The translations under genes and the position numbers were made by a program. Below the pieces are notes generated by a model. The model had not been told where the DNA came from, made no database searches, and saw only the letters and a list, made by a program, of their open reading frames with translations. From the NCBI GenBank assembly GCA_048885865.1, contig JBHLLF010000021.1, positions 1 to 48,711 on the forward strand: a stretch of DNA of 48,711 nucleotides, in the 5' to 3' direction. Position 1 is the stretch's first letter. Each line of letters opens with the position of its first letter. The stretch is from Candidatus Hermodarchaeota archaeon (GTDB taxonomy: Archaea > Asgardarchaeota > Thorarchaeia > Thorarchaeales > Thorarchaeaceae). Shown piece after piece: positions 14,678 to 48,711 of the stretch.

Positions 14678-15598
14678 CTAGAATCCAGCTTCAGTGAGCA
14701 TTTCTTCCAGTCGAATACTACGAATATCGGGAAAACTCACTGAAGGTCTGCCAAATAGAGCTTGGCAAGATTTCACAGAGGGCGACCCTGCAATCTTTTT
14801 CGATATCTGATCCGCATCTTTAAACTGGTCAACAACAAAAACTGCAAAGACCACTGGTTCAGTGGCTGATACCAGTGGTCCATAAAAGGCCACAGGGAAG
14901 TTTTGACCAATAAAGATGAGAACATCTTCTAGACTCCCAGTTTTCTCATCCCATTGAATTCTCAAAAGGAATACAAATCCATCTCCCGCACTCAAGTTCC
15001 ACCTAATACCAAGAGAAACCGCACCGCTCTCGAGAAGCATCTTAATGGTGGCTCGAGTTCTTCTGACCGTCAGTCCTGTGAGCTCTGATATCTCGTTGGT
15101 AGGCATGCGCGGATTCTTGACAAGGCAATTTAGAACCCTGAGTTGGAGTTTGGTCAATTCAGTCTTCGAACCGTGATTTGCATCCTTTACCAAGCTGTGG
15201 AGCTCAACATGGTTTGCATTCTTAATTCCCCGAAGAAAGCTACCCAGGTCTCTAAGACTCTCTGAGCCGATGGAAGTTCCCATTGCTAGATATGAAGACC
15301 CAGATAAGATACCGACCTCTCTAACTAGTTTGTGTGATCCTATGAGATTGAGGCATTCCTCTTCATTCTCAGAACCATCAGTGGAAATCACAGCAAGGAA
15401 ATTATCACCATCAACCATTGCGGGGGAAAGGTCTGCAGTGAATCGCACAATCACACCTGTGTCAATAAGCTTCTGAACACGCTTCTTGACTGCGTTTGCT
15501 GTCATGTTAAACTGCTGTGCAAGGGTCCGATAGGGTGTCCTACAGTTTTGGAGCAACCCAAAGAGAATTCCCTTGTCTATCTCGTCCAATCTTCGCAC
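14678..15598 (-). CDS. Tandem Lrp/AsnC-family transcriptional regulator
   Basis: Two wHTH + RAM repeats (LDEIDKGIL..L..NCR; LTKLQLRVL..L..NPR). Confidence 0.8.
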   Translation of the reverse strand: MRRLDEIDKGILFGLLQNCRTPYRTLAQQFNMTANAVKKRVQKLIDTGVIVRFTADLSPAMVDGDNFLAVISTDGSENEEECLNLIGSHKLVREVGILSGSSYLAMGTSIGSESLRDLGSFLRGIKNANHVELHSLVKDANHGSKTELTKLQLRVLNCLVKNPRMPTNEISELTGLTVRRTRATIKMLLESGAVSLGIRWNLSAGDGFVFLLRIQWDEKTGSLEDVLIFIGQNFPVAFYGPLVSATEPVVFAVFVVDQFKDADQISKKIAGSPSVKSCQALFGRPSVSFPDIRSIRLEEMLTEAGF

Positions 15599-15688: not shown

Positions 15689-16507
15689 CTAGGTGAATGT
15701 ATCGATGCTCCGTCTTGCAGCTATCATCAGATTGTACGAACGCGTAATCATCTTCGTTGCGTCATAATTCCAAATCTTCCTAGCAAGACTCCACTTGATT
15801 TTCAGTTCGTTATATCTTCTAGAGAGTATTGAGTATCTTTTCTTGAGGACTTTTGCCTGCGCATTGGGATCTTTTGCTTGAGCACGCAAGTCCTTGGCCA
15901 GAATCTCAAACGAGGATATATCATGAGAGAGTGTACGAATTACAGCCTCTTCCACTATCGATTGCTTTCCAACCAATCTAAGTCGAGACCATCTTGAAAC
16001 TTCAGCTCCAAGGATGCGTAGCTCCTCGCTTATTTTCTTCGAATCTGCAAACCTATTTGGCTCATCAGATTGTAAGAGTCTTCGTCTGTCCTTCAATCTG
16101 AGAACAGGGAATAAGAGAACTCCAGGTCGAAGACGAATTGATGCCGACTTTCGCACTAATCGTTCAACTCTCTTTTTCTGACCAGCAGTAGGGTCTTTGA
16201 ATCGGTATGAAACAACGGCATAGACACGTCTACTGATGGCGTCTTCCCCGCGCTCACTGGCACTTGGAATCTCACGAGTCTTTTGAAAGGAAATCGCTGG
16301 CAGATCCTGGAGAATTGATTGTTCTTTGGTAATTTGCCCATGAAGTAGGAATAAGCCTCTTCCGACTCTAACCATTTTCCCAAGAGAATTGAGCTTCTTC
16401 ATGTATTCCCGTAATGTCTGAGATTTTCCCATGACAACAATGAGTCGTGACTGTCCCTTCATTGTGGTGTCAAGTGCAGTGGAATCAGATACATCCGCAT
16501 CGCTCAC
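15689..16507 (-). CDS. Basic hypothetical protein, possible ChrB-N/PaaX-like domains plus helical C-terminus
   Basis: YAVVSYRF......KKRVERLVRK...RLRPGVLLFP pattern; family call uncertain. Confidence 0.55.
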   Translation of the reverse strand: MSDADVSDSTALDTTMKGQSRLIVVMGKSQTLREYMKKLNSLGKMVRVGRGLFLLHGQITKEQSILQDLPAISFQKTREIPSASERGEDAISRRVYAVVSYRFKDPTAGQKKRVERLVRKSASIRLRPGVLLFPVLRLKDRRRLLQSDEPNRFADSKKISEELRILGAEVSRWSRLRLVGKQSIVEEAVIRTLSHDISSFEILAKDLRAQAKDPNAQAKVLKKRYSILSRRYNELKIKWSLARKIWNYDATKMITRSYNLMIAARRSIDTFT

Positions 16508-16747
16508 AATACATCAGTTCTCCGAAAAGACAAATAGTGACACACTGTCGCGCATACCATATTCGTTAATATTCTTGTCTACGAGGTCTATAACCACTTC
16601 TGATAATTAACCAACTTGATAACGCCTATAATTCAATAAATAACGCTCATTGGTCTTTAATTCTGATTTTAGGATGCCATTCAGTCCGTAGTTTTCATAG
16701 TCATTCTTTACTCATTTTTCGAGTAGCATTGTTGTGAGGTGAACTTC

Positions 16748-16828
16748 ATGTACTTTGACGATGAAGACATCTGGGCCGATGATGATGACGATTGGGACGA
16801 TGATGATTGGGAAGACGATGACGAATAG
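16748..16828 (+). CDS. Ultra-acidic 26-aa micropeptide MYFDDEDIWADDDDDWDDDDWEDDDE
   Basis: ATG..TAG with GAGGTGA SD at 16736-16742, complementary to the 16S 3' end in this window; mixed GAT/GAC codons; too short for the ORF track. Confidence 0.7.
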   Translation: MYFDDEDIWADDDDDWDDDDWEDDDE

Positions 16829-16900
16829 TCATAGTCAGATCTGATTCATCAATCTCATCCGTTGTCACTTCGTGTTTCTGAATTAAAAGGAGATAACCCA

Positions 16901-16975
16901 ATGGCGAAGAAGAAACCAACTACAAAGAAAAAGAAAACCGAACCAAAGGCGGCTCCTGCCAAGAAGAAGAAATAG
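16901..16975 (+). CDS. Ultra-basic 24-aa micropeptide MAKKKPTTKKKKTEPKAAPAKKKK
   Basis: ATG..TAG with AAGGAG SD at 16887-16892; Lys/Ala/Pro-rich. Confidence 0.7.
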   Translation: MAKKKPTTKKKKTEPKAAPAKKKK

Positions 16976-16987
16976 CAGCATGATGTA

Positions 16988-17008
16988 GGATGAGCTCATA
17001 GCTCATCC
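16988..17008 (+). terminator. Hairpin GGATGAGCT-cat-AGCTCATCC after the micropeptide pair
   Basis: Perfect 9-bp stem with outer CAGCA/TGCTG pairing; T-rich tract near 17040. Confidence 0.5.
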
Positions 17009-17179
17009 AGCCTGCTGTTGAACTTCAGACTTATTCTCATTTTGTTTTCATATTATTGGTAAGAGGACAGGATGCACATGAGAATCCTTCGTGCTTAGAA
17101 GTCCAGGGAAATAGCACCTGCTTTTCTATTCATCTGCCCGAACAATATAAAATACGCTTCATCGGGGTTTTGAAACAAG

Positions 17180-18718
17180 TTGATATCAAGGCGTGAAACT
17201 GAGCTGACTCTAGAGGAAACAGAAAGAGCTCTCAGAAACATGGTGAAGCAGGGAACTGCTGTTCAAATCAGAACCACTTTTACAGAGAGTGTATTCTTAG
17301 TTGCATTCGCCCTTCTTTTGGGTGCGCCAAATACTGTAATAGGAATCTTGGCGGCAATTCCATCAGTGACGCAGTTCCTGCAGCTACCCGCTGTCATCCT
17401 AATTGAGAAATTCAAGAATCGTCGGCGGCTGAATTTCATAACTCAGCTGGGAAATAGATTTGGCGTTCTAGTAATGGCCCTCATTCCATTCATATCAACC
17501 TCAGAAATCAGCGTATTTCTTCTTATTGCAGCACTGGCTATTCAAGCGGTGTTCACAGCTCTCGGATCTCCAAGTTGGAACTCATGGCTGAAGGACCTTG
17601 TTCCACCAGAAAAGCTTGGACGCTTCTTCGCAACAAGAATGACGGTCATGGGAATTGTTGGCATTATCGCGTCGGTTATTGGAGGCTTCTTCATTGGCGA
17701 ATGGAGCCGAATCAATCCCGGCGTCCCGATAATTGGTTATTCTATACTCTTCCTTTTCGCATTCCTTGCAGGGATGATTGCGATATTCTATACATTGTCC
17801 ACTCCTGAACCTCCTATGCTGACAACGCATGAAAAAATGAGCTATTCGGACCTCTTGGCCAAGCCATTCCAGAATAGGAACTTCAGAAACCTGATGTGGT
17901 TCTCAGCTGTGTGGGGTTTTAGCACAGGTCTGGCGGCACCATTCTTCACGGTGTATCTCCTTTTGAGATTAGGTCTTGATATCACTCTCGCTGCGGCGCT
18001 TGCAGCTCTAACTCAATTAACCAGCGTTGTCTTCTTCAGATTCTGGGGAGGATTATCTGATCGCTTGAGTAACAAATCCATATTGCAGGTCACAGTACCT
18101 CTATTCATGTTGGGAACTTTTCTCTGGACATTCTCCTCGATAGCTTCAGACTATAATCTTACAATTCCGCTTCTTGTTATAATTCACATTCTGACTGGAT
18201 TTTCCGCTGCTGGTGTGAATCTCACCTCCAATAATATTGGATTAAAGCTCTGTCCCAAAGGCCAATCATCTGTCTTCATTGCTGCAAAAGGTGTTGTTAC
18301 TGCGGTCACAGGTACGATTGCGCCCATCCTGGCAGGTATCTTGGCGGACTTATTCGACTTACATCAGCTATCCATTTCCATCACATGGATCAGTCCTACT
18401 GGCGTGGTAGTCGTCGATGCGTATCGGCTCATGGGACTTGACTTCATACTCATACTCTCCGTCATCTTCGGAATCTTTGCGGTATATAGGCTTGCATATA
18501 TAGAGGAGCAAGGTGAAGTTGAAGAAAGAGTAGTCCTAGAGGCGATAGTTGCTGAAACACGGCGCAATGTCAAAACGATTTCCACTGTTGATGGTCTTCG
18601 TCATACTTTTGAAGCTCCCATTAATTTGACTCGAAGGGCAGTAAAGAGGAGAAGAAAGAAGAAGAAAGTCAAGTCTGAGGAGCCCCTATATGGAACCAGA
18701 GAAGAAACTATGGAATAG
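17180..18718 (+). CDS. MFS transporter
   Basis: About 12 TM; W.SW..DLVP...GRFF and WGGLSDR..NK motifs. Confidence 0.85.
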   Translation: MISRRETELTLEETERALRNMVKQGTAVQIRTTFTESVFLVAFALLLGAPNTVIGILAAIPSVTQFLQLPAVILIEKFKNRRRLNFITQLGNRFGVLVMALIPFISTSEISVFLLIAALAIQAVFTALGSPSWNSWLKDLVPPEKLGRFFATRMTVMGIVGIIASVIGGFFIGEWSRINPGVPIIGYSILFLFAFLAGMIAIFYTLSTPEPPMLTTHEKMSYSDLLAKPFQNRNFRNLMWFSAVWGFSTGLAAPFFTVYLLLRLGLDITLAAALAALTQLTSVVFFRFWGGLSDRLSNKSILQVTVPLFMLGTFLWTFSSIASDYNLTIPLLVIIHILTGFSAAGVNLTSNNIGLKLCPKGQSSVFIAAKGVVTAVTGTIAPILAGILADLFDLHQLSISITWISPTGVVVVDAYRLMGLDFILILSVIFGIFAVYRLAYIEEQGEVEERVVLEAIVAETRRNVKTISTVDGLRHTFEAPINLTRRAVKRRRKKKKVKSEEPLYGTREETME

Positions 18719-18740: not shown

Positions 18741-19706
18741 CTAAATCCATTGCCTTCTCCTGAAGTAAAAGAGGAACAGCACACCAATTGCAAGCATTGT
18801 TAGGACAACCAGTGGATATGCATATTCCAATTGAAATGGCATGTTTTGAAAATTCATACCAAAGATGCTTGCAATTAGTGTGAGGGGCATTAGAATAGTT
18901 GATACAACAGTCAGAACCTTGACGGTTTCGTTCGTCTTCGTATCAAGACGCAATAGATGAATCTCTAGCATGTTAGACAGATTATCCAAGTAAGCATCTG
19001 CCATTTCTCCTACATGAAGAAGATGGTCATGGAGATCCTTCAGGTATGGTCGGGAAGTTTCCATAATTACCTCTGACTCATCTCGTATGAGTCTTGAAAC
19101 CGCCTCTCGGAGTGGTCGAACGGTCCTCTGGAAAACGCCCATTAGATGCCTTAGTCTGTATATCTCATTAAGGGTAGTTTTATCCCATGATTCTAAAGCG
19201 TCCTCAAGTGCTTGAATTCTGTCATCAAATGAATCCATTACAGCTATATATCGATCAACCAAGGCGTCAATCAATAGATATCCCAAGAAATCAGACTTGC
19301 TGTTTCTCACCCTGCTCTTGGGATTTGATAGTCTTTGTCTTATGTGTGAAAAGAAGTCAATGTCACTCTCTTGAAATGATAAGACGAATCCAGAGCCCAC
19401 AATTATACTAACCTTTTCTGACTCCATTTGCACCGATGAGGTCAGTCTGAACTCTCGAAGAATCAAACAGAACTGGTCAGGGCCAGCGTCTAATTTAGGA
19501 CGATGTTTAGGATTGAGGATGTCTTCAACCAGGAGTGAGTGTATTCCGAACTGCCTACCAATCTGTTCAACCGATTGTCTTTCCTGAAGTCCCTTAAGAT
19601 GGACCCATCTTGTTAACTTAGAGTCCGCTGGTTCTGCACAATCATCGATAGAAGCCGCATCAGACACTCTAATTTCGGTTGGGCTGAAATCGATTATTGT
19701 GATCAT
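18741..19706 (-). CDS. corA: Magnesium/cobalt transporter CorA
   Basis: EDILN...RPK and GMNF signature; 2 C-terminal TM. Confidence 0.93.
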   Translation of the reverse strand: MITIIDFSPTEIRVSDAASIDDCAEPADSKLTRWVHLKGLQERQSVEQIGRQFGIHSLLVEDILNPKHRPKLDAGPDQFCLILREFRLTSSVQMESEKVSIIVGSGFVLSFQESDIDFFSHIRQRLSNPKSRVRNSKSDFLGYLLIDALVDRYIAVMDSFDDRIQALEDALESWDKTTLNEIYRLRHLMGVFQRTVRPLREAVSRLIRDESEVIMETSRPYLKDLHDHLLHVGEMADAYLDNLSNMLEIHLLRLDTKTNETVKVLTVVSTILMPLTLIASIFGMNFQNMPFQLEYAYPLVVLTMLAIGVLFLFYFRRRQWI

Positions 19707-48526: not shown

Positions 48527-48711
48527 AGGAGGTGATCCATCCGCAGCTTCCGCTACGGATACCTTGTTACGACTTCTCCCTACTTGCGAACCCAAGATTC
48601 GTCATCGCCCAGTGGACGACACCTCACCCCAAGTCCGCTCGCATGGAGCGACGGGCGGTGTGTGCAAGAAGCAGGGACGTATTCTCCGTGCGATAGTGAC
48701 ACACGGATACT
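48527..48711 (-). rRNA. rrs: 16S rRNA gene, 3' terminal part (continues beyond window)
   Basis: Reverse complement contains CACACCGCCCGTC, AAGTCGTAACAAGGTA, helix 45 and GGATCACCTCCT. Confidence 0.98.

Follow-up and report, generated by a model that had tools for sequence, protein, structure and literature searches.

Two micro-genes in an apparently empty intergenic region

The stretch of DNA studied here (termed the window) comprises 48,711 nucleotides of contig JBHLLF010000021.1 from a Candidatus Hermodarchaeota archaeon of the family Thorarchaeaceae. Within it, a gap of ~ 670 bp between two long open reading frames (ORFs; 16507 to 17180) was found to contain two micro-ORFs on the forward strand, the first encoding an extremely acidic peptide and the second a lysine-rich one. 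These two micro-genes, together with a divergently oriented gene for a very basic orphan protein of 272 amino acids, are the subject of this report.

The acidic micro-gene occupies positions 16748–16828, with its ATG at 16748 and its stop codon at 16826–16828, and encodes a 26-residue peptide. Eighteen of these residues are Asp or Glu, three are Trp and none is Lys or Arg, giving a net charge of −18, and five of the 10 residues that follow the initiator Met are acidic. The basic micro-gene begins 72 nucleotides beyond the acidic ORF and occupies positions 16901–16975 (ATG at 16901, stop codon at 16973–16975). Its product is 24 amino acids long, is composed largely of Lys, Ala, Pro and Thr, contains 12 Lys residues and has a net charge of +11. 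Each ORF is preceded by a Shine–Dalgarno (SD) site, GAGGTGA at 16736–16742 lying 5 nucleotides ahead of the first ATG and GGAGA at 16889–16893 lying 7 nucleotides ahead of the second.

Upstream of the first SD site, at a distance of ~ 33 nucleotides, a promoter-like box was located on the forward strand at 16687–16703, with the core sequence CTTTAC at 16696–16701. Downstream of the basic ORF, RNA folding predicted a terminator-like element at 16988–17049 (forward strand), composed of a hairpin at 16988–17008 and a T-rich tract at 17030–17049. An earlier reading of this DNA, made from its letters alone and called the original prediction below, had proposed both peptides with these compositions, an SD site for each, a promoter-like region upstream and a hairpin downstream, and all of these features were recovered. 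That reading had also described the unit as unannotated, and the two peptides, searched in all four of their possible forms, are absent from a collection of 15 billion proteins. Gene callers discard ORFs of this length, and a conserved family is thus missing from every protein database queried.

The promoter-like box stands at the same ~ 33-nucleotide distance from the SD site in most Thorarchaeota loci of several genera, making it a candidate BRE/TATA (TFB recognition element/TATA box) element for the unit. The hairpin and T-run follow the basic ORF at every locus compared; the sequence of the stem differs from locus to locus, and five of the six consensus pairs carry compensatory changes. 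Taken in order, the promoter-like box, first SD site, acidic ORF, second SD site, basic ORF, hairpin and T-tract read as one short bicistronic unit. The assignment of the unit to two micro-proteins follows from the box and the covarying hairpin, the fixed spacing of SD sites and start codons, and the frame-specific selection described below, and the two micro-ORFs are probably co-transcribed.

Both reading frames are conserved and under purifying selection

The uniqueness of the acidic frame was examined by a six-frame scan of the 3.58-Mb genome for stop-to-stop frames with at least 12 Asp or Glu and at least two Trp within 20 residues. Only two frames satisfied this pattern and both are micro-ORFs, one being the window copy and the other lying on another contig. 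Of 16 genomes of the same genus, 13 contain DNA that matches the gap. Both frames are open in all of the matching genus-level loci, and the insertions and deletions between them are whole codons. Even in relatives with no more than 69–76% DNA identity, the frames, the SD sites and the positions of the starts are retained. At all loci a GGTGA core is invariant 4–7 nucleotides before the acidic start codon, which may be ATG, GTG or TTG, while the SD site of the basic ORF lies 7–8 nucleotides before its ATG in the genus-level loci and is replaced by a GGA-GTGA-type site in other genera. Since only two such acidic, Trp-containing frames exist genome-wide, and since relatives keep the frames, starts and SD sites of the unit, the micro-ORFs lie beyond what chance would produce.

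Substitutions were next counted by codon position. The acidic ORF gave 773/844/1895 differences at the three positions, with a pN/pS of 0.26 as compared to 0.95–1.9 in the other frames, and the basic ORF gave 93/48/151 differences, with a pN/pS of 0.28 as compared to 0.8–4 in the other frames; these figures derive from same-length pairs that are related to each other and are descriptive rather than P-values. Purifying selection acts on both frames. Conservation of frame and SD site in relatives had been named as one check on the original prediction, and this check was borne out.

The acidic frame is retained in more than 40 distinct loci. For a wider census, an SD-plus-start DNA pattern was used, a profile search of genomes with the acidic peptide having missed known positives. 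The pattern was matched in 38 of 85 genomes of the same family and in 43 of 400 genomes of the phylum, and a reversed control gave one match. The translated matches are Asp/Glu/Trp peptides of 24–34 amino acids that begin with the motif M-x-F-D-D-[DE]-D-x-W. The C-terminal residue of the acidic orthologues is usually Trp or Phe, with Glu and Asp also found, and in most of them a Trp lies at or close to the C terminus.

Matches to the DNA pattern outside the family (loci L027–L031 and L035) were set aside as the N termini of long proteins or as chance. Two of these false positives, L029 and L030 from family f9 (~ 1512–1815), have an acidic N terminus studded with Phe and Leu and, on translation to 100 residues, continue into a stretch with the look of a ubiquitin-like (beta-grasp) fold and a Gly-Gly.

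The possibility was considered that an RNA element or regulatory DNA is conserved at this site and that the frames are incidental to it. The RNA of the window does fold better than its shuffled counterparts (z = −2.9); no Rfam family was found at the unit, and none was expected. Against this explanation, however, substitution is frame-specific in both ORFs, indels come as whole codons, the predicted RNA structure is not conserved, and the spacing from SD site to start codon is fixed while the codon itself switches between ATG, GTG and TTG. The peptides, moreover, keep their composition at DNA identities below 70% and in other Asgard families. A non-coding origin of the conservation is, on this evidence, most improbable, and the two micro-ORFs are very probably real, translated genes.

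Sequencing runs were also searched for the stretch. Only DNA runs clearly contain it, and no RNA run was listed. Three runs labelled as metatranscriptomic, which are flagged as probably DNA, yielded short contigs from relatives that cover 16752–16953, with none on the flanks. Contigs of this label that bridge both ORFs give at most a weak hint of transcription.

Two metatranscriptomic-labelled runs of a single study (X19 and X20) contained contigs of ~ 138 nucleotides that bear sequencing adapters at both ends and correspond to 16762–16901, a span that opens within the acidic ORF and reaches the basic ORF's ATG. These may represent a discrete fragment or an assembly artefact.

The divergent gene encodes a very basic orphan protein

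The gene that faces the micro-gene unit ('unk272') lies on the reverse strand at 15689–16507 and encodes a protein of 272 amino acids with an isoelectric point (pI) of 10.6 and a net charge of +27. Across the family, the pI ranges from 10.2 to 10.8 and the net charge from +18 to +29. The invariant residues are mostly Lys and Arg, and no catalytic residue set is found among them. The family is small, with 55 representatives among 1.84 billion proteins.

The 272-residue protein has no sequence match in Pfam, NCBIfam or the Protein Data Bank (PDB). A Pfam scan of 20 Thorarchaeota members at E-values up to 5 recovered no family, PaaX_M (PF20803), PaaX_C and ChrB_N (PF20229) included, and a single precomputed PaaX_M match, described as 'faint', was recorded on a distant homologue. 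The AlphaFold2 model (pLDDT 84, pTM 0.82) contains two ferredoxin/Cas2-like domains and a three-helix bundle, the N-terminal 75 residues forming a beta-alpha-beta-beta...beta ferredoxin-like unit. A winged-helix or helix-turn-helix (HTH) domain was not seen in the model, and no HTH profile matched. In the ESM Atlas, the protein reached TM scores of 0.45–0.50 to clusters of ChrB_N and PaaX_M. Foldseek returned Rv0674 (3kfw) and PaaX (8a39) at E ~ 8e-3, and nothing in the PDB at E ≤ 0.001. VIA alignment gave Z 5.9 over 58 residues to PaaX (8a39) and Z 5.7 to Cas2 (8ia4); the best value for the N-terminal half was Z 6.5, the ferredoxin-like matches all lying at or below Z 6.5. The helix bundle resembles spectrin-like repeats (VIA Z 12), a likeness that is generic to three-helix bundles. 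The model would fit a polycationic binder that is at most distantly similar to PaaX, ChrB and Cas2.

Next to the start of the gene, a conserved intergenic block was identified at 16545–16592 (strand not assigned). It is retained in the alignment of 13 genus-level loci, the most divergent species included, and may be the promoter or operator of the 272-residue protein gene.

The acidic micro-gene and the basic protein are neighbours in several Asgard families

The 272-residue protein was used to retrieve 40 Thorarchaeota loci, 37 of which had enough upstream sequence. An acidic micro-ORF was found 180–450 nucleotides upstream on the opposite strand in 35 of the 37, and a 36th, which begins with TTG, emerged in a later scan. 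The two genes adjoin one another in every genus sampled (31–72% protein identity), even at loci that lack the Lys micro-gene. The latter was present in 23 of 35 Thorarchaeota loci, 67–104 nucleotides downstream of the acidic ORF; some species carry a remnant of it without a start codon, and others a longer and less basic variant. As judged from this distribution, the Lys micro-gene is dispensable. Across the loci, the net charge of the acidic peptide varies from −17 to −21 and that of the Lys peptide from +9 to +13.

Beyond the Thorarchaeota, the 272-residue family was found in several Asgard families, whereas with the query used the counts in other families were 0 of 135 genomes, 0 of 31 and 0 of 22. 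In two of the families that have it (f31 and f13), a divergent Asp/Glu/Trp micro-ORF lies beside the homologue, and in f31 it is again followed by a Lys micro-ORF. In a third (f32; loci L114, L115 and L117), all the genes are on the same strand, in the order basic protein, first acidic peptide, second acidic peptide and Lys peptide. The two acidic, Trp-containing micro-ORFs of f32 are longer, the Lys micro-ORF encodes 17 amino acids, and in one of the two acidic ORFs a Lys-rich leader is fused to the acidic core. Because the association survives inversion and reordering, it is good evidence for a functional link, and the acidic micro-gene is likely to be functionally linked to the 272-residue protein. 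The micro-genes and the gene for the basic protein are read as a three-gene module that is kept by Thorarchaeota and several other Asgard families.

The idea of a charge-complementary pair, as put forward in the original prediction, holds in that the two peptides are oppositely charged and conserved. The pair is not, however, the whole unit: the basic 272-residue partner had been overlooked, and one of the two paired genes, that for the Lys peptide, can be dispensed with. The DNA condensation, chaperoning and coacervate formation that the same prediction had suggested would be further, putative functions.

Two further observations were made at distant homologues of the 272-residue protein. In family f15 (L101 and L120) and at locus L105, these are flanked only by micro-ORFs of 15–19 amino acids that are rich in Lys and Arg and have perfect SD sites. 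At L105, a 17-residue ORF has a basic start, a run of Glu and a terminal Trp.

The gene organization brings to mind a toxin–antitoxin system, as the original prediction had also suggested, here with three components: the Lys peptide would be a toxin that binds nucleic acid or the ribosome, the acidic peptide its antitoxin and the 272-residue protein a regulator. The order of a neutralizer followed by a polycation 67–104 nucleotides away, under one promoter-like box and one terminator and facing a divergent regulator-like gene, fits such an arrangement, as do the opposite charges and the weak fold likeness of the 272-residue protein to PaaX_M and ChrB_N. The distribution does not fit. Toxin–antitoxin loci are mobile and patchy, whereas this module is found as one locus per genome (plus one acidic paralogue; one or two pattern matches in each genome), is syntenic across genera and Asgard families and appears to be vertically inherited throughout the family and beyond it. 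In addition, it is the supposed toxin that is lost most often and the 'antitoxin' that is always retained, the regulator candidate belongs to a family of no more than the 55 representatives noted above, and none of the three products matches a toxin, antitoxin or DNA-binding family in Pfam or NCBIfam. A toxin–antitoxin function is thus improbable.

A second acidic copy and the duplication or relocation of the module

The second acidic, Trp-containing frame found in the genome scan lies on contig C73 (10168–10248, reverse strand). It starts with GTG after a GAGGTGA site, encodes 26 amino acids, ends in Trp and is followed by a hairpin. It has neither a Lys partner nor a 272-residue protein gene as neighbour, and sits between a gene for a nitrilase-like CN-hydrolase and the gene for MTAP. 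The same two genes enclose the module in the deepest-branching Thorarchaeota loci and in one sub-lineage of the same genus, which points to this position as the ancestral site of the module. In the genome of the window, the genes for the 272-residue protein, acidic peptide and Lys peptide instead lie between an Lrp/AsnC-type regulator gene and a major facilitator superfamily (MFS) transporter gene. With the full module in the window and a lone acidic ORF at the old site on C73, a duplication or relocation has occurred.

The MTAP neighbour scores above the cut-off of TIGR01694, while the hydrolase reaches 106 bits as compared to a cut-off of 410 for N-carbamoylputrescine amidase. A link to polyamines, suggested by these ancestral neighbours, was considered too thin to pursue, the likeness of the hydrolase to the amidase being weak.

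The conserved neighbourhood also bears on a role in the translation apparatus. The ribosomal P-stalk carries acidic tails that end in a hydrophobic residue, and the acidic peptide could be imagined to mimic the C terminus of aP1 and to bind a translation factor, with the Lys peptide and the basic protein binding rRNA. In its composition, the peptide resembles such tails, and abundant peptides associated with the ribosome are typically tiny and have very strong SD sites. However, the conserved neighbours of the module include no ribosomal or translation gene, the ancestral ones being MTAP and the nitrilase-like hydrolase. In this genome, acidic micro-ORFs are absent from the vicinity of ABCE1, and at 64 ABCE1 loci (mostly Thorarchaeota, plus Sifarchaeum and Methanocaldococcus) the upstream 1.2 kb contains none. 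A part in translation of this kind is accordingly quite unlikely.

Of the genes around the module in the window, that for the Lrp/AsnC-type regulator, which has two HTH regions, adjoins the 272-residue protein gene on the reverse strand (14678–15598). The MFS transporter gene (17180–18718, forward strand) flanks the gap downstream, and a gene for a CorA Mg2+ transporter (18741–19706, reverse strand) lies 1.7 kb downstream of the micro-gene unit. In other genera, neither the Lrp/AsnC-type regulator nor CorA is conserved beside the module. The 3′ end of an archaeal 16S rRNA gene is located at 48527–48711.

A putative electrostatic module

The genes, their signals, the selection on both frames, the linkage of three genes and the charges of their products are the observations from which a mechanism can be proposed. 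The module would act by charge, the values being about −18 for the acidic peptide, +11 for the Lys peptide and +25 to +27 for the 272-residue protein. The 26-residue peptide is envisaged as an intrinsically disordered polyanion, in which the runs of Asp and Glu would hold two to four aromatic anchors exposed, these being Phe3, the spaced Trp residues and often a C-terminal Trp or Phe. It would dock on a Lys/Arg-rich surface of the 272-residue protein and could also pair with the Lys peptide. Docking would set it in competition with nucleic acid or another polyanion, so that it would behave as a chaperone, a masking factor or a small mimic of nucleic acid. As an accessory counter-ion, the Lys peptide would then titrate the acidic peptide. 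The Lys-rich leader that is fused to an acidic, Trp-containing core in family f32 fits with two kinds of segment working together. Overall, binding and masking by a three-part electrostatic module is a tentative proposal, with somewhat less than an even chance of being correct.

Two computational approaches to the peptide were uninformative. A complex prediction for the 272-residue protein with a 34-residue acidic orthologue gave no answer (score 0.00), which speaks neither for nor against binding, and a feature search of the ESM Atlas with the 34-residue peptide returned scores of 0.81–0.83 that carry no information.

Several points weigh against the binding proposal. Transcription, translation in vivo, binding and a masking role are all predictions from the genes. 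Conservation of a neighbourhood shows linkage, not contact, and related genomes are not independent samples. The 272-residue protein has no recognized nucleic-acid-binding domain, and its fold matches are weak and generic. As the Lys gene has been lost or has decayed in several species and is absent at the second copy, pairing of acid and base is not essential. Finally, N-terminal runs of Asp and Glu abort translation in E. coli, in yeast and in a human reconstituted system, the abort being relieved by Mg2+, and proteomes avoid N termini with such runs (PMC9718836). Efficient synthesis of the acidic peptide is therefore not to be assumed, and the act of translating the acidic ORF might itself be the function.

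This last point leads to the main rival, in which the unit is a cis-acting translation sensor. Here, the acidic ORF would be of the intrinsic ribosome destabilization (IRD) type, with an abort that depends on Mg2+ or polycation, the poly-Lys ORF would be a second sequence that is hard to translate, and translation itself would be the signal. The 18 acidic residues among 26 accord with the abort of translation at N-terminal Asp/Glu runs (PMC9718836), and the strong SD sites fit heavy ribosome loading. Note, however, that a leader needs a regulated gene downstream, whereas a covarying terminator closes this unit and is followed by genes that vary between genomes. The region from the acidic ORF through the spacer to the second SD site has no conserved RNA structure (consensus −1.78 kcal/mol, with no compensatory pair), and in f32 it is the basic protein that comes first, with the acidic ORFs downstream of it. 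The conservation of Phe3, of the Trp positions and of an aromatic C terminus, moreover, points to a functional peptide product. Sensing by translation is consequently rather unlikely. An attenuator was likewise rejected, the pairing between acidic ORF and spacer that is predicted in the window not being conserved in relatives.

A more ambitious version of the binding proposal was also weighed, namely that the module is an Asgard polyelectrolyte switch. In this version, the acidic, aromatic micropeptide would titrate the Lys micropeptide and the Cas2/PaaX_M-like protein on and off nucleic acid, and the switch would be a forerunner, in mechanism and perhaps by descent, of eukaryotic adaptors and chaperones such as DSS1, prothymosin-alpha with histone H1, and acidic-aromatic activation motifs. 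Such a switch is conceivable, with the odds well against it.

The module is of interest on several grounds. It brings a peptide of ~ 70% Asp and Glu with fixed Trp anchors together with one of 50% Lys, in the archaea that are closest to eukaryotes. Unusual, too, is how tightly the peptides are linked, in several Asgard families, to a basic orphan protein, and the acidic sequence is of a kind that bacterial and eukaryotic ribosomes translate poorly. Should binding be confirmed, a disordered polyelectrolyte complex would for the first time be seen to regulate in an archaeon, the principle being known to date from eukaryotic nuclei; should translation abortion be the point, IRD-type sensing would be extended to archaea. 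With two peptides and one protein of 272 amino acids, the module is small enough for direct testing in vitro.

Comparison with known systems

No description of archaeal or Asgard micro-proteins of this kind was found in full-text searches of the literature. Comparison was made with systems that resemble the module in composition, organization or fold. The bacterial IRD leaders, such as MgtL, and Asp/Glu-rich N termini in general (PMC9718836) share with the acidic ORF its very short length and the dominance of Asp and Glu at the N terminus. Unlike an IRD leader, the acidic ORF does not stand ahead of a regulated gene; a terminator comes after the unit to which it belongs, and no alternative RNA structure is conserved there.

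PaaX/ChrB and Cas2 may share with the 272-residue protein a fold in which a helical bundle comes after a ferredoxin-like (Cas2-like) domain, the matches staying within the generic range. Unlike PaaX and ChrB, the 272-residue protein has no winged-helix domain, and its N terminus is a second ferredoxin-like domain.

The carrier proteins LysW and ArgW have a zinc-ribbon core and an invariant C-terminal Glu in a tail of the EDWGE type. A carrier of this kind was rejected, as the acidic peptides have no Cys or His, their C terminus varies between Glu, Asp, Trp and Phe, and no genes of Lys or Arg biosynthesis are neighbours. Likenesses to the FFAT motif and to the C-terminal tip of single-stranded DNA-binding protein (D-F-D-D-D-I-P-F) were also unsupported, since position 2 is variable and the motif lies at the N terminus here rather than at the C terminus.

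A eukaryotic counterpart with an acidic, Trp-containing motif was considered in two forms, the peptide being either a homologue of DSS1/Sem1 or a WASP-type motif that acts on Asgard actin or Arp2/3. What recommends it is a likeness of composition only, namely spaced Trp within acidic runs, encountered in an Asgard host. The verprolin, central and acidic (VCA) region of WASP shares with the peptide an acidic stretch with a Trp near the C terminus; in the 26-residue product, M-x-F is followed directly by acidic, Trp-containing runs, leaving no room for a WH2 (V) element or a C element. The profiles for ARPC4 (PF05856) and P34-Arc/ARPC2 (PF04045) had no match in this 87%-complete genome, although control genomes gave no signal either. 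No tie to actin or Arp2/3, which the original prediction had allowed for, was found; the peptide offers an acidic, Trp-containing stretch that lacks both WH2 and the C helix.

DSS1/Sem1 (PF05160) is a closer likeness, being small, disordered and acidic with Trp placed within runs of Asp and Glu. In eukaryotes it is an adaptor and a DNA mimic, and its acidic Trp runs dock on the basic grooves of several partners. An hmmscan search of Pfam-A with 18 acidic peptides at E-values up to 10 found no family, DSS1_SEM1 included, although the composition filters of HMMER may suppress such low-complexity sequences. DSS1 is ~ 70–90 amino acids long, with two acidic segments that contain Trp and a C-terminal helix, whereas the acidic peptides are runs of 24–34 amino acids, about a third of that length, with no helix. 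Genes for PCI-domain, proteasome-lid or BRCA2-type OB-fold proteins were not found as conserved neighbours of the module; the conserved neighbour is an archaeal orphan protein, and not a proteasome, PCI-domain or cytoskeleton gene. A counterpart of DSS1 or of the WASP motif is therefore very unlikely.

The pair of prothymosin-alpha and the histone H1 tail is similar in that an extreme polyanion and a Lys/Ala/Pro-rich polycation could pair by charge while remaining disordered, and in that the basic partner would be contested between the acidic one and nucleic acid, as is proposed for the module. Prothymosin is ~ 110 amino acids long and its partner is the tail of a winged-helix histone, whereas the peptides here are free-standing, are 24–26 amino acids long and have no Pfam domain. 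In addition, unlike that pair, the polyanion of the module is rich in Asp and carries Trp and Phe anchors, and its constant partner is a folded protein of 272 amino acids. The two have no sequence relationship, and binding within the module is deduced from charge. The module belongs to no known system, and the nearest to it are the eukaryotic polyelectrolyte pairs and DSS1, which would be alike only in how they may work.

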